In this document: in pieces, positions 12,996 to 27,664 of the stretch | Numbering within the stretch: position 1 is the first letter of the stretch | Layout of the letters: every line of letters begins with the position of its first letter | Origin: Clostridiales bacterium | GTDB lineage: Bacteria > Bacillota > Clostridia > Oscillospirales > Oscillospiraceae | Assembly (NCBI GenBank): GCA_003533405.1 | Contig: DQDL01000118.1 | Span: 12,251-51,379, forward strand | Reading direction: 5' to 3' | Length of the DNA stretch: 39,129 nt | Notes under the pieces: generated by a model | Told to the model about the DNA's origin: nothing | Database searches by the model: none | What the model saw: only the letters and a program-made list of their open reading frames with translations | Made by a program: the position numbers and the translations under genes

Positions 12996-15900
12996 ATGAG
13001 TAAAACAAGAAGAGGCTTGAGCTTCCTGCTTTGCCTTGTGATGGCGTTCTCGCTGTTTGCGGGCGTACCGTTCAAGGTGCTTGACACGGAAGCAAATGCT
13101 ACGGACACGAACACCAACCCGGGGAACAGCTCCAAGTGGGTGACCGCATGGCACACGAGTATGCTGTATCTTGATGCAGCTTCCGATGTCAACAAGGCGG
13201 TGTCGGTTTTATCCGAACTCAACGAGCGTACTTTCCGTACCGTCATTCCCATGACGATTTCGGGTAATACCGTTCGACTGACATACTCCAACGAGTATGC
13301 CCCCAACGGCGAAACGCTCAAGATCGGTGAGATCACTCTTGCAAAGGGCGATCCTAACGACGCGGCTCGCTGGCTCTCAAGCACGAGCGTTAAGCTTAAA
13401 GACATGAACGCGCTCTTTAAGACTGCAATTGCAAATGGGCAAGCCGATGTTGCCAATTCTTATTATCAGGACAGCGGCATCCTTCGCATAAAGCCGGGTG
13501 AGATCGTTGTTTCCGAGCCTATCGACATTTCTGCATTGGGCTTGAATGCAATGGACTACCTGTCCGTCAGCACATGGGTGTGCGACATGAACTCCAATTA
13601 CACCGGCTTTAAGAACGGCTTCACCGGCGGTCTTATCGGCGGCGAGACCAACTACCTTGGCTTGGCGCTTGGTGGCAGCGGATATAACCATACGGAAGCA
13701 ACTGACCTTGACGGCGTTGGTCTTATACCCTCTGTTCCACTCTCAAACTCAAATGCTACCGGCGACTATAATGTCGTTCCGTTCCTCAACACCGTTGAAG
13801 TTTTGCGCGAAAGCATAACGGGCGTTAAGGACACAAGCAATGCCTATACCACCGTTATCTTCGGCGACTCCACCGTTGCTAACGATATTCCCGTTTACCT
13901 TGCACAGAATCTCAAGTCCGGCGACATTGACGGTGTTGCCGTGACATGGGCGGCTGTCAAGGGCAACGAGGTGCTTCTCAACGGTCAGGACGGCAGCGGA
14001 GACAGCAACGGCAATATAATGGACGAAGCGGCTATCTCCGTCGTTGACGAGGTGAAGAAGCTCAGCGGCGTTAAGAAGGTCATCCTCAAGGTAGGCATTA
14101 ACGACATTCTGCACCCCCAGTGCAGCGATATGGCGGCAAACTTTGCAAGCCGTACTCCTGACCAAATCGCACAGCAGATTATTGCCGGCTATAAGTACAT
14201 AGTCGAGCAGCTGCACAACGAGGGAATAGAGGTTTACTTCTATGAGCTTACCCCGTGGCGCGCCGACGACGGCACCTATTACAGCCGCAACAGTACGATC
14301 TCTGCTTGGACTGGGAGGGTCGACAACATCCGCTTGAAGGTCAACGCATGGCTTGCAAAGTACGGCGCTGACTATGATACCTTCGTGACCGACCGCAAGA
14401 CCGGCTCGGGCGATGGATACAAAGGCAACATCACTCTCGGCAACCAGTACGGCACAAACGGCTATACCAAGGCCTATAAGACCAAGGAAGTCACCGTATC
14501 GCAGGATAAGTTTGACCGCTTTGGCTACATAAGCCTCGAAAGCCTCGGGACTACCTCCGCAGCCTATGCACCGTCGACCCTCAACCCCTTCGGCGAAGAC
14601 TTTACCGGCATGACCGCCATGAAGAAGGCATATACCACCGACGGTATCCACTTCACCGCCGCAGGTCAGTCCAAGCTTGCGAAGATCACTCCCACCTCAA
14701 TATTCTATCAGCGTCAGGACACTTATAACGGCGCAGGTGAAACAGTTACCGTTGAGGGTATCTACTTTGCAACAAAGGCGCTTACTGTCGACCACAATTA
14801 TTTTATCTGCAACACCGATGCGGCAAGTATCAAAGACGGTGCCGACGGAAGCAACCAGTCTCTTAAGGGGCATATTGTTGGAAACCCGGGCAAAGCATCA
14901 AGTGCTAGCGACAGAGAGTCTGATGTAGTTTCCGACCTGGAGAGCAATTCCGTAATTGTGCAGCGTGGTACCTCCGGCGCACCGTATATAGTCAAGAAAA
15001 GTGTTGCCGATAAAAACGAATGGACACTTTTGTACATTCAAGACATGAATAGCTATTATTGGAAGAACGGAAACGACTATCTCGTCTGGTACTATCCCGG
15101 ACCGAGCCTAACTTGGGGTAATTACTTTAAAACAGGCGTTATAGATCAGCAACCATGGCACGCCGGCGTTTCCAAACATTGGTATACATTTGATGAAATC
15201 ACCCCTGCTAGTAATGCTTCCGACAATTATTCGGTTAAACTTTGGTATAATGGGACAGTTACTGATAAGTATTTGGTTTTCGATAACAGCAAATTCAACG
15301 GTAAATTCATTTCCTCAAAGAAAAGCGGCAATATCGCTCTCTACGACAATACTTCCAAGGGCGTCAATATAAAGCTGGATATCAATAAGGATTCAGCAAA
15401 TCTGCTTAATGTAACGACTGATGAAACCGTGGTCAATGCAGCAGGCGGAAAGACGACCCAGCTCCAGTTCCGCCTTGATTCGCAGATGCTCGATTCTAAC
15501 AGTGTACCTACAGGAACAGACTTCCACGACGCTCCTAAGGATAACAACGCAAGAGGTCCTTATTCTCAGTACACCTTCGGCGATAATCAGAAGATCTTTT
15601 GGATGAGCACCGACCCCAATGTCGCAACTGTCAGCCAGTCCGCAGCCAGTGACCTCAAGGCAACCTATACCAATGGCGGCGGTGAAGTAACCTTTACCGG
15701 AAACGGCGGCACTACCGCACTTGTTGCAAACTTCTTCTGGAAAGAGCATGACGGCACGGATTATGTCTTTGACAACAATGTCAAGGATGGACAGGCGCAG
15801 TATTACAGCACTGCCGAGAAGGACGCGGCAATTGCCAACGGTTCAAGAGTCCCCAGCGAGACCACAGAGGGATACCATTGGGTTGAAATCAACAACGGAC

Positions 15901-18263
15901 TCTGGGTCTGGACAAACTACAACTGGCTGACTTCCACCACCAAGGTTACCAACATCAATAGATATGCGTGCGACATTCTCCTCGGCGGACTTACCAACAA
16001 CACCGAAGAAGCAGATAACTTCCTCTTTAACGAAACTCCCACCGGCAAGGATTGCACACTTACCGCAGTAAATGCATCCGACCCCATTGATGCAAAGCTT
16101 CCCGGCACTGCTTGGAAGTGGGAAAGCAGTAATACCAATGTTGCGAAGATTGCATCGTCCGCTGATGAGTTTGCAACTCTTGAGTATAAAGGTACAGGAA
16201 CAACGACCATTACCCTTACAAGAGTAGACGAAAACGGCAATGCCGTTACCAGCGATGTTGACGGAAAGCCCATCACAAGCACCATAACCATTCATGTTAA
16301 CGAAATTCCCACCGTTGATATCAGCTTCAACGGAACAACCGAGGACAACTACTGGCTCAAGGGCGTAACCGCAGGCGATAGCTTCGCGATGAACGGCTTT
16401 GTCAGCAATCAGTCCAATGCAACAATTAATTCGTGGACTTGGGAAGCTTACGGCGAGGACGGAAAGCTCACCAATAAAGTTACCGTTACCCCCGATAATG
16501 TACAGAGCACCACACTGACGCTCAACGATGTCGGCATCAGCTATGTAGTTCTTAAAGTTCACTATACACTGCCTAATGGCGGCGGCGAAGGCGATGTAAC
16601 GACCGCTATTTCCATCAACGCAGAGTACAGCATCGCAACCACCACTAACACAATCATTGACTGCGGACTTCCCGTTAAGCTCGATCTCAACGCAAGCGGC
16701 ATCAGCCGTAAAGCTCCGAGCGTTGAGCTTGTCAAGGGCAGAACCGAGAGCAACGAGTTCGGCACAGCCGATGTTCGCCTCGGCTTCGGTGTTGCAAGTC
16801 TTGATAACGGCACTGTGACCTACACACCGACCGCCATCGCAACCGCAAAAGATACCCTCTACTACTCCGCTGCAGTCGATAACGGCTACAAGTACTCCAA
16901 TGTCAACATCATCCCCGCAAGCTCCATCTACTATGAGGACAGCTTCGTGACCTATAACGGCACCGGCTGGAAGGTCGCAGGCGAATCGAAAACCGGCGTA
17001 TATCAGGACATCAAGGACGATGTATACGGCTACGATGCAGCCTACGGCAGCTACATGACCTACTCCAACGGCAGCGCTCACTATGTGACCGTCAATAACA
17101 AGTACGGCGCAAACCTCCCGACCTATACCGGCGAATACCCCACCGCAACCTTCACCTTCACCGGCACCGGCTTCGCCGTCTACTCCACCTCGGATAAAAC
17201 GGCTGGCTTTGTAAAGGTCAAGTATACCAACAAGGACACCAATGTGACAAAGAAGGTCGTTCTTAACTCGTATGCAGAGGGTGACTATAACCAAACCCCG
17301 ACCATTCAGGCGCTTGGTTTGGACTATGGCACCTACGAAGTGACTATCACGGTCGCATATGATAAGAGCTTTGATGTCGGCAACAAGGGTAGTTACACAT
17401 TCTATCTCGATGCAGTCCGCATCTACGAGCCGCTCAAGGGCAATGACGATGCCAATAAAGCATATGGCGAGGTGGGCGAAGCGAACGCAGAGTACAAGAC
17501 CGTCCGCAGCCTGTTGATAGCCAAAGATGTGTTTGATGCCCTCGATGATGAAACTCCCGGTGCAGTATACATTGAAAGCAAATTGCGCAATGTTTATGAC
17601 GAAGATGGCAATATAACCGAGACGAAGGATGTACTTGGCACGAGTGTTTCGGACTACAAGAACTATGGCCCGAAGAACGAGGTTTACCTCGGCAAGGGCA
17701 ACGGCGTTGCATTCAAGATCGATAACGCAGCACAGCTCACAGATATCCAGCTTGGCATCAAGTGCGCAGGCGCTGCGACTGGCAAGGTTATGATAAACGG
17801 TAATTATATCGATATCACTTCTGCAACCGATATGTACTACAGCATCAAAAAGTACATGACGAATGACACGGTGATCATTGCAAATCCCGACGATGCCATT
17901 ATTTCACTGACCGTTCTTAAGACCACCAAGAACGATGCTCAGGTTCAGGCTGATGTCACCGTTACCTCCGAGCTCGGCAAACTTGCGGCAGAGCAGATCT
18001 TTGCAGCCGTCAAGACCCCCGATCCCGAGCCCGTTGAGCCGACTGTTGAGCCGACTGTTGAGCCGACCGAGGAGCCTCAGCCCAGCAAAGACCCGACACC
18101 GAGCGAAGATCCCGAGCCGACCGTTGAACCCACCGAGGAGCCTCAGCCCAGCGAAGATCCTCAGCCCGATGACGACGATCAAGATCAGGATAATGCACTT
18201 ATGAACATCTTGAAAAAGATCGGCGACTTCTTCAAAAAACTGTTTGGAGGTTGGAAAAAATGA
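12996..18263 (+). CDS. Giant secreted multidomain protein: SGNH/GDSL hydrolase (esterase) domain, several Ig-like (Big_2-type) and beta-sandwich domains, Pro/Glu-rich linker, cationic amphipathic tail
   Basis: ATG at 12996, 9 nt after GGAGG (the track starts at TTG 12975). Signal peptide ...FAGVPFKVLDTEANA. SGNH blocks VIFGDSTVAND, KVGINDILHP and DGIHFTAAG. Big_2-like WMSTDPNVATVSQ and WESSNTNVAKIAS. C-terminus PEPVEPTVEPTVEPTEEPQPS...DDDDQDQD then NALMNILKKIGDFFKKLFGGWKK. Confidence 0.8.
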   Translation: MSKTRRGLSFLLCLVMAFSLFAGVPFKVLDTEANATDTNTNPGNSSKWVTAWHTSMLYLDAASDVNKAVSVLSELNERTFRTVIPMTISGNTVRLTYSNEYAPNGETLKIGEITLAKGDPNDAARWLSSTSVKLKDMNALFKTAIANGQADVANSYYQDSGILRIKPGEIVVSEPIDISALGLNAMDYLSVSTWVCDMNSNYTGFKNGFTGGLIGGETNYLGLALGGSGYNHTEATDLDGVGLIPSVPLSNSNATGDYNVVPFLNTVEVLRESITGVKDTSNAYTTVIFGDSTVANDIPVYLAQNLKSGDIDGVAVTWAAVKGNEVLLNGQDGSGDSNGNIMDEAAISVVDEVKKLSGVKKVILKVGINDILHPQCSDMAANFASRTPDQIAQQIIAGYKYIVEQLHNEGIEVYFYELTPWRADDGTYYSRNSTISAWTGRVDNIRLKVNAWLAKYGADYDTFVTDRKTGSGDGYKGNITLGNQYGTNGYTKAYKTKEVTVSQDKFDRFGYISLESLGTTSAAYAPSTLNPFGEDFTGMTAMKKAYTTDGIHFTAAGQSKLAKITPTSIFYQRQDTYNGAGETVTVEGIYFATKALTVDHNYFICNTDAASIKDGADGSNQSLKGHIVGNPGKASSASDRESDVVSDLESNSVIVQRGTSGAPYIVKKSVADKNEWTLLYIQDMNSYYWKNGNDYLVWYYPGPSLTWGNYFKTGVIDQQPWHAGVSKHWYTFDEITPASNASDNYSVKLWYNGTVTDKYLVFDNSKFNGKFISSKKSGNIALYDNTSKGVNIKLDINKDSANLLNVTTDETVVNAAGGKTTQLQFRLDSQMLDSNSVPTGTDFHDAPKDNNARGPYSQYTFGDNQKIFWMSTDPNVATVSQSAASDLKATYTNGGGEVTFTGNGGTTALVANFFWKEHDGTDYVFDNNVKDGQAQYYSTAEKDAAIANGSRVPSETTEGYHWVEINNGLWVWTNYNWLTSTTKVTNINRYACDILLGGLTNNTEEADNFLFNETPTGKDCTLTAVNASDPIDAKLPGTAWKWESSNTNVAKIASSADEFATLEYKGTGTTTITLTRVDENGNAVTSDVDGKPITSTITIHVNEIPTVDISFNGTTEDNYWLKGVTAGDSFAMNGFVSNQSNATINSWTWEAYGEDGKLTNKVTVTPDNVQSTTLTLNDVGISYVVLKVHYTLPNGGGEGDVTTAISINAEYSIATTTNTIIDCGLPVKLDLNASGISRKAPSVELVKGRTESNEFGTADVRLGFGVASLDNGTVTYTPTAIATAKDTLYYSAAVDNGYKYSNVNIIPASSIYYEDSFVTYNGTGWKVAGESKTGVYQDIKDDVYGYDAAYGSYMTYSNGSAHYVTVNNKYGANLPTYTGEYPTATFTFTGTGFAVYSTSDKTAGFVKVKYTNKDTNVTKKVVLNSYAEGDYNQTPTIQALGLDYGTYEVTITVAYDKSFDVGNKGSYTFYLDAVRIYEPLKGNDDANKAYGEVGEANAEYKTVRSLLIAKDVFDALDDETPGAVYIESKLRNVYDEDGNITETKDVLGTSVSDYKNYGPKNEVYLGKGNGVAFKIDNAAQLTDIQLGIKCAGAATGKVMINGNYIDITSATDMYYSIKKYMTNDTVIIANPDDAIISLTVLKTTKNDAQVQADVTVTSELGKLAAEQIFAAVKTPDPEPVEPTVEPTVEPTEEPQPSKDPTPSEDPEPTVEPTEEPQPSEDPQPDDDDQDQDNALMNILKKIGDFFKKLFGGWKK
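18021..18170 (+). repeat. In-frame tandem/degenerate repeats encoding the P/E/T-rich linker
   Basis: gagccgactgtt occurs twice in tandem. A ~33-nt unit ccgaccgaggagcctcagcccagc(a/g)aaga(c/t) is repeated about 63 nt later. Confidence 0.8.
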
Positions 18264-18514
18264 AAAAAGTATATACTAAACCCGAACTGTTCTACGAAGA
18301 GTATGAGCTGTCTGTTGCAATTGCAGGCAACTGCGGTGCACAATTTAGTGCGTTCAATGTGAATACATCAAGTATAACGACCTGCACATACAGAGATGTT
18401 GACGAATTCATATTCATTCAGGCAAATGCTGCCTGCACAGAGCATCCTGCTTATGATGATGATTTGCTGTGCTATGTGACAGCCACCGAGGGAGCTCTAG
18501 CATTCAGCTCATAA
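18260..18514 (+). CDS. 84-aa Cys-containing peptide; candidate RiPP precursor
   Basis: GGAGG 10 nt upstream. The ATG overlaps the TGA of the upstream gene (ATGA). MKKVYTKPELFYEEYEL... with Cys at residues 25, 42, 59 and 71. Ends ...ALAFSS. No signal peptide. Followed directly by a strong terminator. Confidence 0.6.
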   Translation: MKKVYTKPELFYEEYELSVAIAGNCGAQFSAFNVNTSSITTCTYRDVDEFIFIQANAACTEHPAYDDDLLCYVTATEGALAFSS

Positions 18515-18526
18515 TTCAAAACAAGA

Positions 18527-18556
18527 AACCGGCAGCAAAACGCTGCCGGTTTTTTC
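18527..18556 (+). terminator. Rho-independent terminator/attenuator after the peptide gene
   Basis: Perfect 10-bp stem aaccggcagc / gctgccggtt, 5-nt loop, T6 run. Confidence 0.85.
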
Positions 18557-18605
18557 TGTACAAACAAAATATTATAATGTATAATAGCCGTGCGAGGTGT
18601 TGCAA

Positions 18606-19295
18606 ATGAAAAAGAAAAAGCAGATAATCGCCGCCGTGCTGGTGCTCATCGCCGCCGTCGCAGCGGTGCTGATATTCACCCGAAAAAACGAAACCGAGTC
18701 AAACCCCGAATCAGTCAATGTCGCAGATATCCAAATCGACGCATCCGCAGGCGGCATATCCGTCGTCTCGCTGGAGAACATCTCCGGCATGTATGTCGAG
18801 GACGGCAGCGACGAGGTCATGAGCGGCATTTTCGCTGCGACCTTCCGCAACGACTCAGACAGCGATCTTCAATATGCAAAGCTCGTCCTGACCGTCGGCG
18901 AGGAGGACTATATCTTTGAGCTGTCCACCGTTCCCGCCGGTTCGACCGTCCGTGCGATGGAGATGAACAAGAAAGCGTTTGTATCGTCAAAGGGCGAAGT
19001 GACGCTCAAGCAGGAGAACATTGCATGGTTCGATGAAGCCCCGTCCATGTACAGCAATATGCTCAAAATTATCCAGCGCAATAACGCCATAATCATTGAG
19101 AATATCTCCGGCCAGACCATTACTGCGCCCATCTATGTCTACTACAAAAACTACACCGATGGCATGTACATCGGCGGCATAACCTACCGTGCGGGGACGC
19201 AGGAGAACCTTGCCCCGGGCAAGTCAGTCGCTTTGAGCGCAAAGCACTTTGACCCCGATGCCTCACGGCTCATGTTTGTGACATATGCACATTAA
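18606..19295 (+). CDS. Single-pass membrane protein of unknown function (N-terminal TM, ~200-aa extracytoplasmic domain)
   Basis: MKKKKQIIAAVLVLIAAVAAVLIF TM anchor (the track ORF starts at 18597). No motif I recognise. The 3' end overlaps the next gene by 11 nt. Confidence 0.6.
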   Translation: MKKKKQIIAAVLVLIAAVAAVLIFTRKNETESNPESVNVADIQIDASAGGISVVSLENISGMYVEDGSDEVMSGIFAATFRNDSDSDLQYAKLVLTVGEEDYIFELSTVPAGSTVRAMEMNKKAFVSSKGEVTLKQENIAWFDEAPSMYSNMLKIIQRNNAIIIENISGQTITAPIYVYYKNYTDGMYIGGITYRAGTQENLAPGKSVALSAKHFDPDASRLMFVTYAH

Positions 19296-20097
19296 AACCT
19301 ACGATTTTTCGGGTATTCACCTCGGTATCGAGAGCGAAGAACCGCTTACCGACAATGCCGAGCTGTGCAAGTTTAGTTACAGCGGCACGCCCGATTACAC
19401 GATATCCCTGCACTTTACCGACACCGTGCCCGATACCTCAGACTGTGCCGATTTTTTTGTTAAAACGGCAATACTCGAGGCAAACACGCCGCAGCGCCCG
19501 TTTTCTTGCACCGAGTTTTACGCAGACCACTGCGAAATGCAGGTGCTCGACAGATACGCTGCCGACTTCACGGTCGACTCGGTGCTGCGTCACCTGCCGC
19601 TTAGTCACATGCTGCTGAAATTTGACGCATTTGTGCTGCACGGGGCGTACATTGTCGTAGACGGTGAGGCAATCGTATTCTCCGCACCTAGCGGCACAGG
19701 CAAATCCACGCAGGCTGAGCTGTGGCGAAGGCACCGCAGCGCCGCCGTCATTAATGGCGACAGGGTGCTGGTGCGCAAAAGCGCTGACGGCTTCACCGCA
19801 GGTGGGATATATTTCGCCGGAACATCCGGAATATGCGAAAATGTCACCGCACCGCTGCGTGCGATAATCGTGCTCGGGCAGGCAAAGGAAAACGGCCTGC
19901 ACCGCTGCACGGGCTCGCAGGCGCTGCATTCGCTTTTCGGTCAAAGCGCCTGCTGCAACATTGACGGCGAACCGGTGCGGCTCGTCGGGCTGATATCCGA
20001 ACTCATAAACAGCACCGAAATTCTGAGGCTTGACTGCCTGCCGGATGTGTCGGCGGTCGAGACACTGTCGGATTTCCTCTATGGAGAGAGCAAGTAA
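19285..20097 (+). CDS. HPr-kinase-like P-loop protein (HprK-related / ScmC-like), putative peptide kinase or scaffold
   Basis: 270 aa. LHGAYIVVDGEAIVFSAPSGTGKSTQAELW mirrors the HprK/P C-terminal domain block HG-x-lvdv-x-G-x-GvLi-x-G-x-SG-x-GKS-E-x-AleL. The N-terminal ~110 aa are unassigned. Confidence 0.55.
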   Translation: MHIKTYDFSGIHLGIESEEPLTDNAELCKFSYSGTPDYTISLHFTDTVPDTSDCADFFVKTAILEANTPQRPFSCTEFYADHCEMQVLDRYAADFTVDSVLRHLPLSHMLLKFDAFVLHGAYIVVDGEAIVFSAPSGTGKSTQAELWRRHRSAAVINGDRVLVRKSADGFTAGGIYFAGTSGICENVTAPLRAIIVLGQAKENGLHRCTGSQALHSLFGQSACCNIDGEPVRLVGLISELINSTEILRLDCLPDVSAVETLSDFLYGESK

Positions 20098-21236
20098 TGG
20101 AAAACGAATATGTCGAATCGAGAATAAGCCGCCACCTGCACAGTCGTGCGGCTCGTGTGGGCATTCCGCTGTCCGGCACATTTGAGCTTACGCCCTGCTG
20201 CAATCTTGCATGCAAGATGTGCTATGTGCGCAAGCCGAGAGCGGAGGTCGAGGCCGAGGGCGGACTAATGAGCGCCGAGCAGTGGATCACGCTTGCGCAA
20301 AAATGCCGTGAAAGCGGCATGCTGTACCTGCTGTTGACCGGCGGCGAGCCGCTGACGCACCCGCAGTTTCGTGAAATTTACACCGCCGCAAAGAAGCTGG
20401 GCTTTGTGGTGTCGATAAACACCAACGGCACGCTCATCAACGATGATATGCTGCACTTTTTGGCATCCGACCCACCTGCCAGAGTGAATATGTCGCTGTA
20501 CGGAGCAAGTCGTGAGACCTACAGCGAGCTGTGCGGCGTGCCCGAGGCGTTCGACCGAGCAATGTATGCGCTCAAGGGTATGCGCCGAGAGGGCATAAGG
20601 GTCAAGCTAAATTACAGTGTCACACGGTACAACCGTGGCGACATGGTCGGCATACTCGACACTGCCAAGGAAAACGACTGCAATGTGCAGATAGCAAGCT
20701 ATATGTTCCCGCCGCTTCGGCGTGACGGCTCACAAATCGGCGAAAATGATCGCATGACCGCCGAGGAGGATGCAGCCTTTACTGTAAAAAGCGAGAGGCT
20801 GCGCCTGCCGGCCGAGAAGTTTAAAGAACGCTGCAAGGCACGCATCGCACGCAGCGGCGGCACCATCGACGAGGAGTGCTTAGACGCACCCACGGAGCAT
20901 ATCCGTTGCCGAGCCGGAACCACCGCATTTTGGGTCAACTGGAACGGCGAGATATCGCTGTGCGGCATGATACCCCGCCCATCGGCAAATGTTAAGACCA
21001 CCGGTTTTGCCGAGGCGTGGCAAAGGGTGCGTGAGGACACAGCAAAAATACTCGTGCCGGCAAAGTGCACCGCCTGTCCCGACCGTGAGGTCTGCATGGT
21101 GTGTGCCGCATCCTGCTACTGCGAGACCGGCGGTTTTGAGAAGGCGCCCGAGTATATTTGCCGCAGGACAAGGGCACTTATTAAAGAAAGCGAAAATGCC
21201 ATTGCCGAGGAGAAAGAAAATGAAAACCAACCCTGA
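20097..21236 (+). CDS. Radical SAM enzyme with C-terminal SPASM-type auxiliary Fe-S domain (peptide maturase-like)
   Basis: CNLACKMC (CX3CX2C) near the N-terminus, GGEPL SAM-binding motif, C-terminal Cys clusters CRAGTTAFWVNWNGEISLCG and CTACPDREVCMVCAASCYCETG. The start overlaps the upstream stop (TAATG). Confidence 0.85.
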   Translation: MENEYVESRISRHLHSRAARVGIPLSGTFELTPCCNLACKMCYVRKPRAEVEAEGGLMSAEQWITLAQKCRESGMLYLLLTGGEPLTHPQFREIYTAAKKLGFVVSINTNGTLINDDMLHFLASDPPARVNMSLYGASRETYSELCGVPEAFDRAMYALKGMRREGIRVKLNYSVTRYNRGDMVGILDTAKENDCNVQIASYMFPPLRRDGSQIGENDRMTAEEDAAFTVKSERLRLPAEKFKERCKARIARSGGTIDEECLDAPTEHIRCRAGTTAFWVNWNGEISLCGMIPRPSANVKTTGFAEAWQRVREDTAKILVPAKCTACPDREVCMVCAASCYCETGGFEKAPEYICRRTRALIKESENAIAEEKENENQP

Positions 21237-21483
21237 ATTTATAGCCAGAGACATTGCCGGCGAGCTGGTGCTTGTGCCGGTCGGCACGGCGGCGAAGAGC
21301 TTCGGCGGGCTCGTGACCTGCAACGAGGTCGGTGCGTTCATATGGAAAACGCTCGAAAACGGAGCGACCATGGACGAGCTTGTCGCCGCGATACTCGACG
21401 AGTTTGAGACCGACGAGCAGACCGCACGGAGCGACGCCGAGGAGTTTGTCGCAAAGCTAAAGGAAATAAACGCAGTTATATAA
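21220..21483 (+). CDS. PqqD-family protein (stand-alone RiPP recognition element)
   Basis: 87 aa, MKTNPEFIARDIAGELVLVPVG...LNEVGAFIWKTLENGATMDELVAAILDEF...AEEFVAKLKE, typical PqqD length and pattern. Overlaps the rSAM gene by 17 nt. The track ORF 20989-21483 is an upstream extension. Confidence 0.8.
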   Translation: MKTNPEFIARDIAGELVLVPVGTAAKSFGGLVTCNEVGAFIWKTLENGATMDELVAAILDEFETDEQTARSDAEEFVAKLKEINAVI

Positions 21484-21486
21484 CAG

Positions 21487-21511
21487 AAGCCTCCGGCTCA
21501 GCCGGAGGCTT
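21487..21511. terminator. Hairpin between the convergent PqqD and peptidase genes
   Basis: aagcctccggc-tca-gccggaggctt, a perfect 11-bp stem. The U-tracts are weak on both strands. Confidence 0.55.
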
Positions 21512-21516: not shown

Positions 21517-21987
21517 TTATCTATTATAGTATGAGTTGTCACGGTGCAGGACGGTGTACAGCTTTATGAGCCATGGCCTGACGGAGACAAGGTGCCGCCA
21601 CGAACCTGCGTAGAAGCTCCATAGCGCATTGTCCGGCCAAATCTCTTTGCCGTCACGCTCGACATGCGTCACCACGGCGAACACCTGCTCGGGTGCGATT
21701 GGCCCCTCGATGCGCTGCTGGCTGTCGCCGAGCATGTACAGGCCGCTGTCGTCGATTTTGCAGATGCGGTGGAGAATGTACTGCCCGTTAAAGCGCTGGT
21801 AAAACACGATGTCGCCGACACGCAGCTCACGGTCGGGCTTTTTAAAAAAAGCCGTATCCCGTCCGCTGTGCAGGAACGGATACATGCTGTGTCCGCTTAC
21901 CTTGACGCAGACCTCGTGTCCGCTTTCGGCAAGCTCACGCAGCACGGATATGTATTCAAATGTGTCGATCCTGCGCATGGAAAACAC
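21517..21987 (-). CDS. Soluble (TM-less) S26B/SipW-like serine peptidase
   Basis: 156 aa. VSGHSMYPFLHSG...LRVGDIVFY...ILHRICKIDD...YMLGDSQQRIEGP aligns block for block with the neighbouring SipW (SGSMEPTYHVG...VGDPITF...ATHRVVRID...YTKGDANDDPD). No hydrophobic anchor at either end. Confidence 0.65.
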   Translation of the reverse strand: MFSMRRIDTFEYISVLRELAESGHEVCVKVSGHSMYPFLHSGRDTAFFKKPDRELRVGDIVFYQRFNGQYILHRICKIDDSGLYMLGDSQQRIEGPIAPEQVFAVVTHVERDGKEIWPDNALWSFYAGSWRHLVSVRPWLIKLYTVLHRDNSYYNR

Positions 21988-22252: not shown

Positions 22253-22789
22253 GTGCTGAAAATAGCGAGAAATCTTATGAGAAAATCTGTAAAGAAAACA
22301 TGGAATGTTATATCCACTGTGCTGGTGGCGATCGTGGTCATCATCGCCCTGCTGCTTGTCGGCGCAAGGGTGTTCGGACTTCAGGTCTATGCGGTGCTGT
22401 CCGGCTCCATGGAGCCGACATATCATGTGGGTTCGATAATATATGTCAAGTCCGTCGACCCGAGTGAGATAAAGGTCGGCGACCCGATAACCTTCGTCAT
22501 GAACGAGCAGCTTACCGTTGCAACGCACCGTGTCGTGCGCATCGATGCGGAAAACAGTGCGTTTTACACCAAGGGCGACGCTAACGACGACCCAGATGCC
22601 GCACCCGTGCATTTTAACAACCTTCTGGGCAAGCCCGTGTTCACCATCCCGTACCTTGGCTACATATCAAGCTATGTGCAGTCACCCCCGGGCATCTACA
22701 TTGCCGTTGGTGTAGGCGTGCTGCTGCTGGCACTTGCGTTTTTGCCGGACATGCTTGACGGCGACAAAAAGGAGAAGCAGAAAAATTAG
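22253..22789 (+). CDS. sipW: Signal peptidase I, SipW (ER/archaeal) type
   Basis: SGSMEP (Ser nucleophile), THRVV (His base rather than Lys), GDAND box, N- and C-terminal TM segments. The track start is GTG 22253; the ATG at 22277 (MRKSVKK) is an equally plausible start. Confidence 0.85.
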   Translation: MLKIARNLMRKSVKKTWNVISTVLVAIVVIIALLLVGARVFGLQVYAVLSGSMEPTYHVGSIIYVKSVDPSEIKVGDPITFVMNEQLTVATHRVVRIDAENSAFYTKGDANDDPDAAPVHFNNLLGKPVFTIPYLGYISSYVQSPPGIYIAVGVGVLLLALAFLPDMLDGDKKEKQKN

Positions 22790-22858
22790 TTCAATATGGG
22801 GCTAAGCCCTTTTTGAAGAATATGTAGGAATTTTGTTTGATCGAAAGGAGACAATCAA

Positions 22859-23461
22859 ATGAAGAAAAAACTCACAACCGTATTGGCGATCGTTTTGGTC
22901 GTCGCCCTGTCCGTGGCAGGTACCTATGCTTACCTGACTGCACAAACCGACACCGTCACAAACACCTTTACCGCAGCCGGTCTTGCATCAAGCTTCAGCC
23001 TTGACGAAAGCAAGGCAAATCAGCAGCCCGACGGCTCCTACACTCTTGATGTTGCAACTAGAGTTCAGGAGAACCAGTACTCTGTCGTTCCCAAGGTGAA
23101 CCTTGCTAAGGATCCTACCGTACATGTAACGCTTGAGGCAAATGTCGGCGCATATGTTTTCCTCGCAGTTGACGACAACCTCGGCGACGGCCTGACCGCA
23201 ACCATCGACAGAGGCAATTGGACTGCACTCAACACCACCTACACCGACGCACAAGGCGTAGCTTGGACCATGTACTACAAGCAGCTCGAAGGCAGCGCAA
23301 CTCCCGCACAGGTCGACATCAATGTTCTTACTGGCCAGCAGATCGTTGTCGGTGATACCGTCGCAGAAGACTGCGGCAACATCGTGTTCAATGCATACCT
23401 GACCCAGTCCGCAGGCTTCACCGACGCACTTGATGCATGGAACAACTCCTGGGGCAAGTAA
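22859..23461 (+). CDS. TasA/CalY-like protein with SipW-dependent-type signal peptide (candidate major fibre subunit)
   Basis: AAAGGAG RBS. N-terminus MKKKLTTVLAIVLVVALSVAGTYAYLTAQTDTVTNTFTAAG parallels TasA/CalY (..GGGTFAFFSDKEVSNNTFAAGTLDL). 200 aa. Followed by a stem-loop. Confidence 0.7.
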   Translation: MKKKLTTVLAIVLVVALSVAGTYAYLTAQTDTVTNTFTAAGLASSFSLDESKANQQPDGSYTLDVATRVQENQYSVVPKVNLAKDPTVHVTLEANVGAYVFLAVDDNLGDGLTATIDRGNWTALNTTYTDAQGVAWTMYYKQLEGSATPAQVDINVLTGQQIVVGDTVAEDCGNIVFNAYLTQSAGFTDALDAWNNSWGK

Positions 23462-23506
23462 TTTTGGCTTGCGTCAGTAAGTAACTGAAAATACACAGAA
23501 ACCCAG

Positions 23507-23533
23507 CCCTGCGGCCGTATTTTGACCGCAGGG
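23507..23533 (+). terminator. Intra-operon stem-loop after the first TasA-like gene (possible attenuator or mRNA stabiliser)
   Basis: ccctgcgg ... ccgcaggg, an 8-bp GC-rich stem with an 11-nt loop and no clear U-tract. Confidence 0.4.
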
Positions 23534-23615
23534 TGTCGGTGGATTTAGAACAATGGGCGCTCCACCGATATTTGCCCGCAATACGCAGTCAATTCTGCGC
23601 ATGGGAGGTTTAAAC

Positions 23616-24185
23616 TTGAAAAATACAAAGACAAAAATTTTGGTTCTGGCTTTGGCGGTCTGCCTTGTTGCCGTTTGCGCAATGGGTACCGCGGCTTACT
23701 TCACCGACCGCAGCACAGCGACGAATGTCATCACGACAGGCGGCGTTGATATCGAGCTGATCGAGACCGCCGAAAAGGACGGCGAGCTCGTCCCGTTCGA
23801 GGATATTTCCGGCGTCATGCCCGGCGATGTAGTATCTAAGATCGTTGAAGTCAAGAATACCGGCAAAAACGATGCCTATGTCCGTGTAAGCGTCGAGAAG
23901 GCGATCACCCTGGCCGAGGGCCTTGAGGGCAAGGTCGACCTGTCCCTCGTCAAGCTGAACATCAACACCGAGAAGTGGACCGAGGCAGACGGATATTACT
24001 ACTACAACGGGGTTCTCAAGCCCGGTGAGACCACCGCACCGCTGTTCACCACCGTCACCTTTGACGGCACGATGGATAATCTCTATCAGAACTGCACCAC
24101 TACCATCAGTGTTGCCGCACAGGCAACTCAGTCGGCCAATAATGGCACGAGCGCACTGACCGCAACCGGTTGGCCGGAGGCATAA
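23616..24185 (+). CDS. TasA/camelysin (Peptidase_M73-like) family protein with SipW-type signal peptide
   Basis: GGGAGG, 7 nt, then TTG at 23616 (the track ORF starts at 23553). MKNTKTKILVLALAVCLVAVCAMGTAAYFTDRSTATNVITTGGVDIEL, then GVMPGDVVSKIVEVKNTGKNDAYVRV as in TasA/CalY. Confidence 0.7.
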   Translation: MKNTKTKILVLALAVCLVAVCAMGTAAYFTDRSTATNVITTGGVDIELIETAEKDGELVPFEDISGVMPGDVVSKIVEVKNTGKNDAYVRVSVEKAITLAEGLEGKVDLSLVKLNINTEKWTEADGYYYYNGVLKPGETTAPLFTTVTFDGTMDNLYQNCTTTISVAAQATQSANNGTSALTATGWPEA

Positions 24186-24200
24186 GAAAGGGGCAAGCGC

Positions 24201-27095
24201 ATGAAGAAAAAGCTATTAGCCCTCGTCCTCGCCGTCATGATGACGGTCGGCTGCTTCGCCGGTCTCGGCGCAGCGGTCGGGCAGGACGCTGATTTTGCCG
24301 CACTGAGTGTGGCAGATCAGTATGCCGCCATTATGGCAGCGGGCAGCGAAGCCGATGCGCAGGCATTGTTTGATACACTCGATGCCGAGCAGCAGGCAGC
24401 TTTGACGGCTTATGCAGACCAGCAGAAGGATACGGACACCGCTAAGGAGACCGACCCCATCCCCGCTGTCAACTACACCAATGTTGCTCCGCTCGTGACC
24501 GCAAATAAGGTGTCGCAGCCTGCAAGGGCACGCCTTATGAGCGCAAGCTCGACGGCACGCCCCATCGAAAAGGGCAAGACCGTCGACGGCCTTGTCATTA
24601 ATAAGACCGCAACGGCAAACGACGACGGCACTTACAACATCAAGCTCGAAGCCTACACCACCGGCTCCGTGAGCACCACCGAATCCACCAAGCCCACGGA
24701 TATCGTTCTCGTCCTCGACCAGTCCGGCTCGATGGATGAGGACATGAAAAGCTACACCTACACTGAGGCGTACCCCGGCAATAACCATAACGGTTCGTAC
24801 TATGTAAAGTCTAGGGACAGCTATGTCAGAGTGTCATGGTGCTCCGATTGCAGAGCATGGACTGACGGCTGCACTGACGGCTGGTTTTGGCAGCACTATT
24901 CCGGCACCAAGTATACGCCGAAAACTTCAGCATCCGACACGGCAAGCGGCCATGTTCAGTTCTATTCCCGTGGCTCTGAAACCAAGGTTAAGCGCCTGAC
25001 GGCACTTAAAAAAGCGGTTACCAGCTTTGCCGATGCCGTTGCCGAAAAGGCAAAGGGAGCTGATGGCGTTCTTGGCACAGATGACGATGTTAACCATCGT
25101 ATCGCTGTTGTAGGATTTGCATCCGGCAACCCGTCGAATAGGCTTTATTACAATTCGGAGATTTTTGTCGGAGCAAATCAGTACCAGTATAATAGACTTA
25201 CTTCGCAGAACTATTTGGATGCAATGCAGAGCATGGACACCAAGACAGGCGTTGATAATATCGGTAAGTCTATTAATGCGCTTGACGCAGAAGGTGCAAC
25301 ATATACCAACCTTGGTATTGAGATGGCAAATGGTATATTTGCAACCAATCCCGTAGAAAACAATTCACGCAACCGTATTGTGGTCGTGTTCACCGACGGT
25401 CAGCCCGGCCGCAGCGGCTATGACTCCAGCATTGCAAATGCTGCCATCAATCAGGCTAACACTACAAAGAACACCTACAATGCAACTGTATACACCGTCG
25501 GTATTTTTGAAAATGCCGATGCAACCTCTGCCGGCAACCAAAACGGTACAAACGCAGAGAAGTCCAATTGGTTTATGCAGAAGCTGTCCAGCAATAACGG
25601 CACTCCTCAGGATCCCAGCTACTATCTGTCTGCTTCCGATTCTGATACCCTCAGCACTATATTCCAGAAGATAAGCAATCAGATCAGCGAAAGCAAGATC
25701 GACCTCGGCAGTCAGACCGTTATCAAGGACACCGTCACGAAGTACTTTGATATGCCGACCGACGCAAGCAAGGTCAGCGTAAAGAGCTACGACTGCACCG
25801 GCGTTGCAGATGGCAAGCCCACATGGAGCGAGACCGGCACCGTTATAAACAATGCCGTTACGCTCGACCCGAAGGATAACTCCGTCAATGTCACGGGCTT
25901 TGACTTTAACGCAAACTATGTCACCGAAAAGGGTCGTGATGAGAACGACCCCAAGAAGGAAGGCGACTTCCACGGCAGAAAGCTCGTTATCGAGTTCACC
26001 GTCACCGCAAAGGACGGCTTTGTCGGCGGCAACAGCGTGCCCACCAACGGTTCGGACTCCGGCGTCTATGACAAGGACGGCAAAGAGGTCGCAACCTTCG
26101 ATGTCCCGCAGGTCAATGTACCCATCGAGCCCGAGCTCACCGTCAACGACAAGGTCATTTACGAGGGCGGCTCTGCCAATGTGAGCGGCCTGTACAATGC
26201 GGCCGACACCTCATCTTGGAAGTATGACTTTGTAAATGTAAGCTATGAGGTCAAAAACGGCAATACCGCAGTCAGCGGCAGCGTCAGCCCCGCAGACTGC
26301 ACCGACTACACCGTGAAGGCCACCTTCAGCCCGAAGTACGACGGCAAGAACGCCGACGGCAAGATCAACGACGATGTTACCGTCGATGGCACCGCCACAG
26401 TCCATGTTCTCAAGCCGACCGTCACCGTGACTGCCAACGATGTTTGGAAGTATTACGGCGAGGACTACAATACGCCCGACGGCAGCACCGTCACGGGCTC
26501 GGTCACTTGGGCAGACGAGCACAGCCATGATGTAAGCGGCATCACCGTTATCGGCTCTGCACCTTACGGCACGGACGATCTTCAGTACAGCTACGACCAC
26601 GGTCAGTTTGTCGTTCCCAATACCGACACGACCATCGCTGTGGTCGCCAAGGTCGGCGGCGTGGAAAAGGCAAGCACGAGCTATGTCGTTCACCCCAAGT
26701 TCTGCACCCTGACCATCAACAAGGAAGTTGCAAAGCTCTACGGCGATAACGACAGCTTTATCTTCAATGTCGTCGGCGAGGGCAACATCAAGTACGAGGC
26801 CAAGGTCGTCATAAACGGCGCAGGCTCCGCAACGCTCACCGGCCTCCCCGTCGGCAGCTACACCGTCACCGAGGACATCGGCTGGTCTTGGAGATACACC
26901 TGCGACAGCAGCACCAAGTCGACCGTCCTGAGCTCCGCTAAGGATAACGACAGCGTGACTATCACCAACAAGCTGGATGACAACAAGTATCTCGGCGACG
27001 AGACCTATGTTATCAACAAGTGCGAAAGCAGGACGATAACGAAGGTAACTTCGACCGTCATCCGGCAGGCCATCGAGTATATACTCGGTAGATAA
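24201..27095 (+). CDS. Large secreted von Willebrand factor A (vWA) domain protein with C-terminal Cna-B/SpaA-like Ig domains; adhesin-like
   Basis: Sec signal peptide. MIDAS DIVLVLDQSGSMDE and VVFTDGQPG. C-terminal LTINKEV...TLTGLPVGSYTVTEDIGWSWRYT is typical of pilin/adhesin stalk domains. No LPXTG-like signal at the C-terminus. Confidence 0.8.
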   Translation: MKKKLLALVLAVMMTVGCFAGLGAAVGQDADFAALSVADQYAAIMAAGSEADAQALFDTLDAEQQAALTAYADQQKDTDTAKETDPIPAVNYTNVAPLVTANKVSQPARARLMSASSTARPIEKGKTVDGLVINKTATANDDGTYNIKLEAYTTGSVSTTESTKPTDIVLVLDQSGSMDEDMKSYTYTEAYPGNNHNGSYYVKSRDSYVRVSWCSDCRAWTDGCTDGWFWQHYSGTKYTPKTSASDTASGHVQFYSRGSETKVKRLTALKKAVTSFADAVAEKAKGADGVLGTDDDVNHRIAVVGFASGNPSNRLYYNSEIFVGANQYQYNRLTSQNYLDAMQSMDTKTGVDNIGKSINALDAEGATYTNLGIEMANGIFATNPVENNSRNRIVVVFTDGQPGRSGYDSSIANAAINQANTTKNTYNATVYTVGIFENADATSAGNQNGTNAEKSNWFMQKLSSNNGTPQDPSYYLSASDSDTLSTIFQKISNQISESKIDLGSQTVIKDTVTKYFDMPTDASKVSVKSYDCTGVADGKPTWSETGTVINNAVTLDPKDNSVNVTGFDFNANYVTEKGRDENDPKKEGDFHGRKLVIEFTVTAKDGFVGGNSVPTNGSDSGVYDKDGKEVATFDVPQVNVPIEPELTVNDKVIYEGGSANVSGLYNAADTSSWKYDFVNVSYEVKNGNTAVSGSVSPADCTDYTVKATFSPKYDGKNADGKINDDVTVDGTATVHVLKPTVTVTANDVWKYYGEDYNTPDGSTVTGSVTWADEHSHDVSGITVIGSAPYGTDDLQYSYDHGQFVVPNTDTTIAVVAKVGGVEKASTSYVVHPKFCTLTINKEVAKLYGDNDSFIFNVVGEGNIKYEAKVVINGAGSATLTGLPVGSYTVTEDIGWSWRYTCDSSTKSTVLSSAKDNDSVTITNKLDDNKYLGDETYVINKCESRTITKVTSTVIRQAIEYILGR

Positions 27096-27109
27096 GGAGG
27101 GGCTGTAAT

Positions 27110-27664
27110 ATGAAATTATTTTCTTCACGCAGCTCCCACGCTGCAAATAACGGCGGCGCAAAGAAGCTGTCCGCCGCAGCAATTGCAATTATCCTCGTGG
27201 TCGTCATGGCGATAGGCGGCACGGTCGCTCTCCTCATGGACAGCACCGACAGCGTCACCAATAAGTTCGCCCCCGCTTCCTCAGGCATCACCATCGAGGA
27301 GGAGGTCAAGGAGAACTGCAAGACCGAGATCGCAGTCAAAAACACCGGCGATACCGGCGTGTATGTCCGTGTGTCGCTCGTTGCCAACTACTACGACGAA
27401 AACGGCAATATCACCGGCGGCGCTGCGGTCCCCGACTTTACGCTCAACTCCGATAAGTGGTTTGTGGGCAACGATGGCTACTATTACTACAAGCAGCCCG
27501 TTGCGGCAGGCGATGTGACCGACAACCTGCTCATCGGCAAGATGCAGCTTGAGGACAATATGCAGGTCACAGTGCTTGCACAGAGCATACAGGCAAGCCC
27601 CACGAGCGTGGTTCACGACAAATGGGGCGTGACCGTCAATTCCGACGGAACGCTTGCGAAGTAA
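27110..27664 (+). CDS. TasA/CalY-like protein with SipW-type signal peptide (minor subunit candidate)
   Basis: AAGGAGG RBS. ...IAIILVVVMAIGGTVALLMDSTDSVTNKFAPASSGITIEE, then VKNTGDTGVYVRVSL, the same blocks as the other two TasA-like genes. Confidence 0.65.
   Translation: MKLFSSRSSHAANNGGAKKLSAAAIAIILVVVMAIGGTVALLMDSTDSVTNKFAPASSGITIEEEVKENCKTEIAVKNTGDTGVYVRVSLVANYYDENGNITGGAAVPDFTLNSDKWFVGNDGYYYYKQPVAAGDVTDNLLIGKMQLEDNMQVTVLAQSIQASPTSVVHDKWGVTVNSDGTLAK

Follow-up and report, generated by a model that had tools for sequence, protein, structure and literature searches.

A conserved family of four-cysteine precursor-type peptides encoded beside radical-SAM/SPASM, PqqD and ScmC-like kinase-fold genes and giant secreted proteins in gut Clostridia

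Background

Gene cassettes combining a radical S-adenosylmethionine (rSAM) enzyme of the SPASM type, a small PqqD-family protein and an HPrK-like protein of the ScmC type have been catalogued for years. To our knowledge, no precursor, substrate or product has been identified for those described in TIGRFAM as SynChlorMet, GeoRSP and HPr-rel-A. A cassette of this composition is located in a stretch of 39,129 nucleotides (nt) from a Clostridiales bacterium affiliated with the Oscillospiraceae (assembly GCA_003533405.1, contig DQDL01000118.1, positions 12,251 to 51,379), which was analysed as a whole and is referred to as the window in the following. Directly upstream of the cassette lies a gene for an 84-aa peptide with four cysteines, the start codon of which overlaps the end of a gene for a giant secreted protein. 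The peptide represents a large and conserved family and is proposed here as the probable substrate of the cassette enzymes, in a system reminiscent of ribosomally synthesized peptides with post-translational modifications (RiPPs). No paper describing this system was found in the literature searched; work in subscription journals may exist.

Results

Organization of the locus

The features of the locus are compiled in Table 1. The translated peptide (MKKVYTKPELFYEEYELSVAIAGNCGAQFSAFNVNTSSITTCTYRDVDEFIFIQANAACTEHPAYDDDLLCYVTATEGALAFSS) consists of a leader of approximately residues 1–22 (MKKVYTKPELFYEEYELSVAIA), which is conserved in the family, and a core of approximately residues 23–84 harbouring the four cysteines, the pair C71-Y72 and the C-terminal F82-S83-S84. 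The stem of the hairpin behind the peptide gene, CCGGCAGC-AAAAC-GCTGCCGG at 18529–18549, is extended by A/T pairs and followed by six T at 18550–18555. Its predicted folding energy amounts to −22.7 kcal/mol (z = −7.3), a stability reached by 0 of 200 shuffled sequences. Further downstream, the genes for the membrane protein, the ScmC-like protein, the rSAM enzyme and the PqqD-family protein overlap by 11, 1 and 17 nt, respectively. The membrane protein has a weak FxLYD-like match (16 bits against a cut-off of 23).

A first-pass annotation of the window had described a four-Cys open reading frame (ORF) of 84 aa with a GGAGG ribosome-binding site of its own, a stem plus T6 terminator behind it and four successively overlapping genes on the + strand, and had noted the lack of an exporter and of an immunity gene. 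This description agrees in all parts with the present results: coordinates, Cys positions and gene overlaps were recovered, the hairpin folds well beyond shuffled controls, and no candidate for an exporter or immunity gene was found near the cassette in the window. Not mentioned in it are the ATGA overlap with the gene of the giant protein, the family-wide invariance of the C-terminal Ser and the convergent peptidase gene.

Table 1 Features of the peptide locus and of the neighbouring surface-structure genes (positions refer to the window)
Feature	Position	Strand	Remarks
Giant secreted protein	12996–18263 (ORF from TTG 12975, 1762 aa)	+	Stop overlaps ATG of the peptide gene (ATGA)
GGAGG ribosome-binding site of the peptide gene	18246–18250	+	9 nt 5' of ATG; within FGGW codons of the giant-protein tail
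84-aa precursor-type peptide	18260–18514 (ATG 18260 to stop 18514)	+	Cys 25/42/59/71
Intrinsic-terminator-like hairpin	18526–18555	+	GC stem, AAAAC loop, T6; directly 3' of the peptide gene
Sigma-70-like promoter match (TGTACA, 17 nt, TATAAT)	18557–18585	+	5' of the modification genes; consensus match only
229-aa single-pass membrane protein	18606–19295	+	KKKK-flanked N-terminal helix, then beta-rich domain
270-aa ScmC/HPrK-like protein	19285–20097	+	P-loop kinase architecture of predicted PEPCK/HPrK fold
379-aa radical-SAM/SPASM enzyme	20097–21236	+	No fused RiPP recognition element
87-aa stand-alone PqqD-family protein	21220–21483	+	Presumed RiPP recognition element
Bidirectional terminator-like hairpin, 11 bp (8 GC)	21487–21511		Separates the PqqD gene from the convergent peptidase gene
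156-aa S24/S26-type (signal-peptidase-I-like) serine peptidase	21517–21987	-	Convergent to the PqqD gene
SipW-type signal peptidase	22253–22789	+	
TasA/camelysin-like proteins	22859–23461 and 23553–24185	+	SipW-dependent signals
964-aa VWA protein	24201–27095	+	
BsaA-like matrix protein	27110–27664	+	
LPXTG protein	27675–28319	+	
Sortase	29783–30598	+	

The peptide family

A word-indexed search for homologues of the peptide retrieved nine clusters of 45–96 % identity, all of them 82–85 aa long. Their alignment displays an invariant N-terminal block (M-K-x-x-Y-x-K-P-x-L-F-x-E-E-Y-E-L-x-x-x-I-A-G-N-C, with Lys or Arg at position 3), a total of four invariant cysteines and, additionally, C-Y and a C-terminal F-x-S. 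Within the first 26 codons the window and one of the related loci (L004) differ by 9 synonymous and only 2 nonsynonymous substitutions. An exhaustive HMMER profile search across 1.84 billion cluster representatives (E ≤ 1e-3) matched 809 protein cluster representatives and, among the 150 matches listed, almost all were 70–95 aa long and aligned end to end with the peptide profile. The designation of the locus as an orphan by the first-pass annotation was therefore wrong if it was meant to denote uniqueness to the window. The peptide ORF is a real, conserved and widespread gene family.

Two long proteins, P0262 (1473 aa) and P0271 (1928 aa), in which profile positions 22–69 were matched in 8 and 12 stretches, respectively, were set aside. 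They are repeat-rich and T/G/A-rich, and the matches look driven by composition and unrelated to the peptide family. The printed region of P0262 displays ...VSC[DN]DGNSTGN...VTCTFTN... repeats.

Conservation was assessed with 219 unique peptides, i.e., the matches of the profile search pooled with the peptides recovered from genomic loci. The family-wide leader reads M-K-K-x-Y-x-K-P...E-x-F-x-L...I-A, with frequencies of 1.00, 0.93 and 1.00 for Tyr, Lys and Pro of Y-x-K-P, 0.91, 0.82 and 0.83 for the subsequent Glu, Phe and Leu, and 0.81 and 0.94 for the Ile and Ala preceding the first cysteine. The four cysteines are conserved at 1.00, 0.97, 1.00 and 0.99, and exactly four are present in 174 of the 219 peptides. 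Towards the C-terminus, the Tyr after the fourth cysteine (0.95), a Phe at position −3 (0.92) and the alignment column of the C-terminal Ser (0.97) stand out, Ser being the last residue in 208 of the peptides. The stretches between the cysteines vary in sequence and in length across the family. Such a near-invariant leader combined with a variable core of fixed cysteines is typical of RiPP precursors.

Scans with NCBIfam and Pfam models, extended to E = 10, gave no match to any of four peptides of the family, as anticipated by the first-pass annotation, which had recognized no named RiPP family and no signal peptide; the N-terminus is indeed occupied by the leader-like conserved segment. An AlphaFold2 model of the peptide, based on a shallow alignment of 10 sequences, yielded no confident fold (predicted local distance difference test (pLDDT) 41.6), consistent with a flexible precursor. 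The leader presumably bears some likeness to the N-terminus of PqqA. A likeness to a Y-x-K-P-x-L leader pattern of ranthipeptide/sactipeptide-type precursors, which the first-pass annotation had proposed, was not confirmed, as the passages considered from the ranthipeptide paper PMC9413430 contain no leader sequence.

Besides the 80-aa type, a second peptide family of 125–151 aa was observed, with a leader of the same type, M-K-[KR]-x-[YW]-x-x-P, followed by A-x-C-W (L007, 15094–15480; L030, 13443–13820; L023, 9915–10313; L089, 4919–5374). Its members likewise terminate in Ser (...NAS, ...ATS, ...NRS) and adjoin further PqqD, ScmC and rSAM genes; in some cases one locus contains both peptide types. 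Judging from these sequences, the longer peptides and their neighbours appear to form a paralogous system.

Co-occurrence of the peptide with the cassette

Genomic contexts were compared for 80 loci from GTDB species representatives chosen solely by alignment of the rSAM enzyme, and counts refer to those 48 of the rSAM-selected loci that extend at least 3.5 kb on each side of the rSAM gene. By label, the hosts of the rSAM-selected loci are nearly all Clostridia, among them Oscillospiraceae, Faecousia, Lachnospiraceae, Acutalibacteraceae and Christensenellaceae, and many were sampled from gut or rumen. Labels of a different kind are borne by a few bins (L016, Coriobacteriaceae; L025, Bacteroidaceae; L038, Bulleidia).

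A peptide of the family is adjacent to the rSAM gene in 41 of the 48 loci, which answers in the affirmative whether peptide homologues accompany the enzyme in other genomes, a point on which the first-pass annotation had made its proposal depend. The ScmC gene adjoins in 45/48, a PqqD gene lies within 6 kb in 37/48, a homologue of the membrane protein belongs to the cassette in 32/48, and an S24 peptidase gene is found nearby in 4/48. With an iterated profile hidden Markov model (HMM) of the peptide, the family was detected in 73 out of 92 sources. Most peptide-less loci outside the 48-locus set have a contig end upstream, and one of them retains the C-terminal half of the peptide at the contig edge.

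Gene order is identical to that of the window in L001 and L004, which carry 47–52 %-identical peptides. In the more distant Bariatricus (L007) and Dysosmobacter (L009), with rSAM enzymes of about 47 % identity, a family member of 87 aa is in each case encoded directly 5' of ScmC and rSAM. Overall, two gene orders occur, pep-(TM)-ScmC-rSAM-(TM)-PqqD and PqqD-TM-pep-ScmC-rSAM (pep, peptide; TM, transmembrane protein), and since both retain the peptide, its association with the cassette survives rearrangement. A hairpin of −20 kcal/mol or lower is present within 110 nt 3' of the peptide stop codon in 41 of 63 loci, as compared to 0/63 and 7/63 at two control positions; a strong hairpin behind the precursor gene is thus a conserved trait. 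As the peptide accompanies the cassette in dozens of divergent genomes, their arrangement is more than chance.

Among the loci lacking an adjacent peptide, L011 (6463–9867) combines an rSAM gene of 62 % identity with TM, ScmC, PqqD and S24 peptidase genes, and has neither an adjacent peptide nor an adjacent giant gene. This cassette is embedded in an exopolysaccharide (EPS)/capsule locus with genes for glycosyltransferases, pyruvyl transferase, NTP_transf_5, ABC exporter, CpsB and Wzz. A gene for NTP_transf_5 (PF14907-type nucleotidyltransferase) was found within 8 kb in 10 of the 92 sources; with this low frequency and its absence from the window, it was rejected as a core part.

Enzymes and accessory proteins of the cassette

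The rSAM enzyme carries the radical-SAM motif C35-x3-C39-x2-C42 (CNLACKMC at residues 35–42) and, towards the C-terminus, cysteines 271, 289, 324, 327, 333, 336 and 355. These seven, which like C35, C39 and C42 do not vary among 20 homologues with identities as low as 45 %, constitute, at the sequence level, a complete SPASM signature. In Pfam, PF04055 was matched with 78.5 bits, and PF13186 (SPASM) with 18.1 bits, below its cut-off of 21.5; SPASM matches are on record for homologues. Since the protein starts only about 30 residues before the cluster motif, it has no fused RiPP recognition element (RRE). The cluster motif, the C-terminal cysteine clusters and the division of labour with a separate, 87-aa PqqD protein all correspond to the first-pass annotation.

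None of the NCBIfam models reached its cut-off with the rSAM enzyme. Highest scores were obtained for AhbD (111 vs. 500 bits) and NirJ2 (92 vs. 500 bits), followed by GeoRSP_rSAM (79 vs. 400 bits) and ScmE/F (71–75 vs. 400 bits). The sactisynthases SkfB (57.6 vs. 300 bits), AlbA (56.5 vs. 850 bits) and StsB (52.5 vs. 625 bits) as well as the MoaA, mycofactocin and PQQ models likewise remained far below their cut-offs. Compared with solved structures, the family profile is nearest to the thioether synthase SkfB (4e-22), BlsE (1e-15), SuiB (1e-14, full length) and PqqE (2e-12), with the anaerobic sulfatase-maturating enzyme (anSME) far behind (E 1.6e-8). The peptide maturases SkfB, SuiB and PqqE are thus among the nearest solved relatives, which speaks against the clade with a non-peptide substrate that the first-pass annotation had considered as a counter-case; BlsE, second in rank, is a non-peptide enzyme. 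There is no sulfatase gene in the window to support an anSME identity, and the rSAM gene is surrounded by surface-protein genes in place of a tetrapyrrole-pathway neighbourhood. Matches among GTDB species representatives do not exceed 48 % identity, and a 74 %-identical protein is encoded in a metagenome-assembled genome of the Bacillota. As judged from these comparisons, the enzyme represents a distinct SPASM clade and is not demonstrably a tetrapyrrole or sulfatase enzyme.

The PqqD protein matches Pfam PF05402 with 64.2 bits (cut-off 23.4) and has weak matches to the lasso, GeoRSP and ScmD models for PqqD proteins (geo_PqqD_fam, 31 vs. 100 bits; ScmD, 23 vs. 100 bits).

Only weak NCBIfam matches were obtained for the ScmC-like protein (ScmC, 17 vs. 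125 bits; HprK_rel_A, 15 vs. 200 bits; also HprK_rel_B), and its homologues carry precomputed Pfam matches to PF27840 (ScmC). An alignment of 27 sequences displays an invariant H119, the P-loop A-P-S-G-T-G-K-S-T-Q-A-E-L-W and N-G-D-R at 157–160. Searches of the sequence against the PDB, as single sequence or as profile, gave no meaningful match, and fold comparison alone succeeded: with the AlphaFold2 model (pLDDT 91.7, predicted template modelling score 0.88), Foldseek retrieved ATP-dependent phosphoenolpyruvate carboxykinase (PEPCK; E 2e-7, TM-score ~0.5) and HPrK/P (~1e-5), all with a probability of 1.0. Because the predicted structure is placed with PEPCK and HPrK/P, the term HPrK-like chosen by the first-pass annotation is correct at the level of fold and superfamily, as far as the model goes.

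The peptidase matches Pfam Peptidase_S24 with 28.7 bits and NCBIfam sigpep_I_arch with 38 bits, the latter below its cut-off, and no obvious membrane anchor is apparent on reading its sequence. It is present in L001, L004 and L011, i.e., mainly in close relatives of the window, and may be a candidate leader peptidase of accessory nature.

Giant secreted proteins

The giant protein of the window likely starts with MSKTRRGLSF at position 12996 and thus comprises about 1755 aa. It begins with a signal-like sequence, contains a linker rich in Pro and Glu, terminates in an amphipathic tail (NALMNILKKIGDFFKKLFGGWKK) and is matched by no model of Pfam or NCBIfam. Large ORFs recur at this position: in 43 of 67 unique loci, the ORF that terminates −33 to +25 nt from the start codon of the peptide gene encodes 600 aa or more, mostly 1000–2300 aa, and in the alternative gene order an ORF of 1379–2218 aa starts directly after the rSAM gene. 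Of the 48 rSAM-selected loci, 40 have an ORF of 900 aa or more beside the cassette and on its strand; in 34 of these 40 it reaches at least 1400 aa. As proteins of such length generally make up about 1 % or less of a Firmicute proteome, giant ORFs appear to be strongly enriched beside the cassette.

Their domains differ from locus to locus, e.g., VWA together with a GBS104-like Ig domain in L007 and GH20 in L009. Signal-peptide-like N-termini are present in the giant proteins of the window, L001, L004 and L007. At the C-terminus of many giant proteins there is a short tail that is basic, amphipathic and rich in W/F (window, 18240–18263; L001, L004, L007 and L013–L087), of the kind ...KKIGDFFKKLFGGWKK, ...WLNKLFSRWF, ...NIWNNFFGKWF, ...FIKDFLNKLFGW or ...TDFFKSLFRW, which follows a Pro/Glu-rich linker or Ig-like repeats in otherwise unrelated proteins. 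For the tail of the window, the helical hydrophobic moment is 1.93 as compared to 0.62 for shuffled sequences, none of 2000 shuffles reaching 1.93. No sorting-domain model of NCBIfam matches the tail, and a sub-threshold match to phenol-soluble modulin epsilon was dismissed as reflecting amphipathicity.

Genomic surroundings

The cassette is situated in a surface-protein island at about 10–30.6 kb of the window. Housekeeping genes adjoin the island, namely those of an [FeFe]-hydrogenase to its left and of the shikimate pathway to its right. The surface-structure cluster 3' of the cassette (22253–30598, + strand; Table 1) is syntenic with it only in close relatives. Its SipW/TasA-like genes were rejected as part of the system, being absent from the distant loci for which called genes are listed.

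On the left side, a 917-aa ORF (10004–12757, + strand) joins a DUF3298 lipoprotein in frame to the C-terminal half of a DegT/DnrJ/EryC1 aminotransferase (profile positions 152–359 of 360). Its counterpart in L001 consists of two genes for 519 and 371 aa, and the fusion is probably a deletion, a pseudogene or an assembly artefact. Three genes at 5861–9901 (+ strand) resemble those of an electron-bifurcating [FeFe]-hydrogenase (2Fe-2S thioredoxin-like subunit, Nuo51-type flavoprotein and Fe-only hydrogenase large subunit), pointing to a strictly anaerobic host.

Discussion

Relation to known systems

As read from the sequences, the locus displays the generic traits of RRE-dependent rSAM/SPASM RiPP systems, i.e., a precursor with leader, a PqqD protein, and an rSAM enzyme with CX3CX2C motif and seven-Cys SPASM signature. 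SynChlorMet, GeoRSP and HPr-rel-A are built from the same parts, namely a P-loop protein of the HPrK/ScmC family, a small PqqD protein and a PqqE-like rSAM/SPASM enzyme without fused RRE. In contrast to them, the system of the window occurs in gut and rumen Clostridia, and it comes with an identifiable family of precursors, with a membrane protein and with a giant secreted protein next to it. SynChlorMet possesses two rSAM enzymes where the window cassette has one; the equivalog cut-offs of ScmC, ScmD, ScmE and ScmF were all missed, agreement being confined to the family level of PF27840. For GeoRSP, scores likewise fell short of the equivalog cut-offs of GeoRSP_rSAM and geo_PqqD_fam.

With the sactipeptide maturases SkfB, AlbA and RumMC the system shares Cys-containing cores of the substrates and SPASM/twitch auxiliary clusters. 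These maturases carry fused N-terminal RREs, whereas the PqqD protein of the window is separate. Additionally, the core is about 60 aa long with widely spaced cysteines, exporter and immunity gene are lacking, and the sactisynthase cut-offs were missed. Ruminococcin C, too, is a product of gut Firmicutes, the four Calpha-thioether bonds of which require radical-SAM enzymes (PMC8188230). As to the Cys-x(n)-Asp/Glu motif of ranthipeptides and QhpC, the sequences C42-x3-D46 and C59-x-E61 occur in the window peptide, but acidic residues are not conserved at any position across the family.

The closest parallel in logic may be QhpC of quinohemoprotein amine dehydrogenase, which has intraprotein thioethers of the ranthipeptide type. 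QhpC is a leader-bearing, mostly unstructured small protein with four cysteines that is crosslinked in the cytoplasm by the rSAM/SPASM enzyme QhpD; after its leader is cut by a dedicated serine protease, QhpC serves as small subunit of secreted proteins that are much larger and belong to the same operon (PMC7876137). In contrast to Qhp, homologues of QhpA, B, E, F and G, the Trp-quinone logic and an ABC exporter are missing from the window, where leader recognition would proceed via a separate PqqD protein. Conversely, Qhp has no counterpart of the kinase-like enzyme and the invariant C-terminal Ser.

For the latter two, lasso-peptide clusters offer an analogy. In lasso peptides, the C-terminal Ser is a substrate for phosphorylation by PadeK and PsmK, two kinases of the HPrK family, whereupon the nucleotidyltransferase PsmN adds hexoses (PMC6993621). 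Such clusters resemble the window in the combination of an HPrK-superfamily P-loop kinase with a Ser-terminated precursor, and some of the loci considered here contain a PF14907-type nucleotidyltransferase; unlike in lasso clusters, no lasso cyclase or B1/B2 protease was found in the window. Compared with solved HPrK, the ScmC-like protein has a predicted two-domain, PEPCK-like architecture and no detectable sequence match. On the profile scores, motifs and gene content given above, the system would not be classified as a sactipeptide, lasso, mycofactocin, PQQ, AhbD/NirJ or anSME system, and presumably not as a ranthipeptide system.

Proposed maturation of the peptide

Since the family nearly always adjoins the rSAM enzyme, PqqD, the kinase-like protein and a giant protein, the 84-aa peptide is probably the substrate of the rSAM, PqqD and ScmC-like proteins. 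We hold it to be moderately likely that the locus encodes a conserved, RiPP-type maturation of the peptide and that the product works with the giant secreted protein of the same transcription unit. Gene anatomy, family conservation, co-occurrence, folds and motifs were observed; the scheme that we place onto them infers the substrate, the chemistry of crosslinking and that of the kinase, the site at which the leader is cleaved and a partnership of the peptide with the giant protein.

In this scheme, the genes of the giant protein and of the peptide would be co-transcribed and translationally coupled via their ATGA overlap. The hairpin 3' of the peptide gene would attenuate read-through, such that expression of the maturation genes would be weaker or driven by a promoter of their own. 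PqqD would bind the leader at Y5-x-K7-P8...E13-x-Y15-x-L17...I21-A22 and present the disordered core to the rSAM/SPASM enzyme, which, equipped with three [4Fe-4S] clusters, would crosslink the four invariant cysteines inside the peptide. Thioethers of the sacti- or ranthionine type appear most likely in this step by analogy, because SkfB is the nearest relative of the enzyme and cysteine is the sole conserved chemistry of the core. The ScmC-like kinase would act on the invariant C-terminal Ser, with O-phosphorylation as the most likely reaction in view of the HPrK-family kinases PadeK and PsmK and their action on the C-terminal Ser of lasso peptides.

In the clade of the window, the soluble S24/S26-type peptidase may cut off the leader at V19-A20-I21-A22 | G23. 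A small-x-Ala motif precedes the first cysteine family-wide (S/N/A-I-A; A20-I21-A22 in the window) and could fit a signal-peptidase-like −3/−1 site for this peptidase; the indication is a weak one, because the peptidase is rare outside the clade of the window and Asn is common at −3. The crosslinked peptide would then become a small partner of the giant protein, i.e., a subunit, anchor or adaptor comparable to QhpC. It is the translational coupling together with the family-wide adjacency that leads to the notion of a product working with the giant protein.

Several points weigh against this scheme. Thioether formation and Ser phosphorylation are analogies only, and no potential acceptor residue occurs at a fixed offset from any of the cysteines across the family. 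The highest-scoring curated HMMs for the rSAM enzyme are those of the tetrapyrrole enzymes AhbD and NirJ2, though far below their cut-offs. An S24 peptidase accompanies only 4/48 of the distant loci, and the putative P3 position is often occupied by Asn. About seven amply flanked loci, L011 among them, possess the cassette without an adjacent peptide. The giant proteins form a heterogeneous group, the aromatic tail being present in only about half of its members, and part of the conservation of the tail could be explained in the window by the embedded ribosome-binding site. Furthermore, the cassette is devoid of an exporter by which a peptide modified in the cytoplasm could meet a secreted giant protein.

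Alternative interpretations

The product might instead be a diffusible RiPP that acts on its own, e.g., a bacteriocin or a signal resembling sactipeptides or ranthipeptides, with the giant gene merely being a frequent neighbour in surface or accessory islands. Precursor, hairpin and maturase genes do follow the classic layout, SkfB as nearest solved relative makes a killing factor, and a variable core would be compatible with an arms-race molecule. A secreted peptide of this kind would nevertheless have to do without transporter, immunity gene and dedicated export peptidase in the window cassette and in most other loci, its core of about 60 aa would be long, and the peptide is coupled or adjacent to a giant ORF in most loci, a link that is kept after the change in gene order. 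We therefore regard a diffusible product as unlikely.

Quite improbable is also that the enzymes modify the tail of the giant protein, a polysaccharide or another non-peptide substrate, in which case the 84-aa ORF would encode an accessory protein, e.g., a disulfide-bonded adaptor or a chaperone. PqqD-family proteins bind peptide leaders, the co-occurrence of the peptide (41/48) is as strong as that of PqqD itself, and the most conserved part of the peptide is leader-like and lacks a signal peptide, which is hard to square with a secreted disulfide protein. As for the giant proteins, Sec-type signals would take them out of the cytoplasm, where rSAM enzymes act. On the other hand, some loci hold TM-ScmC-rSAM-PqqD without an adjacent peptide, in L011 even inside an EPS/capsule locus, the best curated HMMs describe non-peptide SPASM enzymes, and the conserved-looking tail of the giant proteins could serve as a recognition tag.

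A small redox cofactor, derived like PQQ or mycofactocin from a precursor with a retained, invariant F-x-S C-terminus, is very improbable: rSAM/SPASM enzyme, stand-alone PqqD and C-terminal motif recall MftA/B/C and PqqA/D/E, and both enzyme families are among the matches, but four conserved cysteines distributed across a hypervariable core of 60 aa would serve no purpose in a C-terminal cofactor, genes for partner dehydrogenases are missing from the window, and mycofactocin and PQQ models scored far below their cut-offs.

Conclusions

The maturation of the peptide in association with the giant protein, as favoured here, brings together three novel elements: a large precursor family outside the curated libraries, an invariant C-terminal Ser paired with a kinase of predicted PEPCK/HPrK fold, and the systematic pairing of the cassette with giant secreted proteins. 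The family can be put to the test, offering at least 809 sequence clusters, with the four invariant cysteines and the invariant C-terminal Ser as chemical handles, and, if the scheme is true, two new tools could be gained from the system, an enzyme for crosslinking and a kinase for peptides.

A further-reaching and tentative possibility, which we consider rather doubtful at present, is a hitherto unrecognized two-part surface system of gut Clostridia, in which the crosslinked and Ser-modified small protein is produced in concert with the giant protein and acts as its dedicated subunit, anchor or attachment handle. The handle might pair with the W/F-rich amphipathic tail or tie the giant protein to the envelope or to a polysaccharide via the modified Ser. 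If this is true, the locus would represent a new protein-sorting or attachment system and not a natural-product pathway, and it would provide the first substrate class for ScmC-type cassettes (HPrK-like + PqqD + rSAM).

The hosts belong to abundant and little-studied Clostridia of gut and rumen (Oscillospiraceae, Faecousia, Lachnospiraceae, Acutalibacteraceae). The coupling to giant proteins is unusual for RiPPs and suggests a role in building or anchoring surface structures for the interaction with host, glycans or phages; in that case, the logic of peptide maturases would reach from natural products to the biogenesis of surface proteins.

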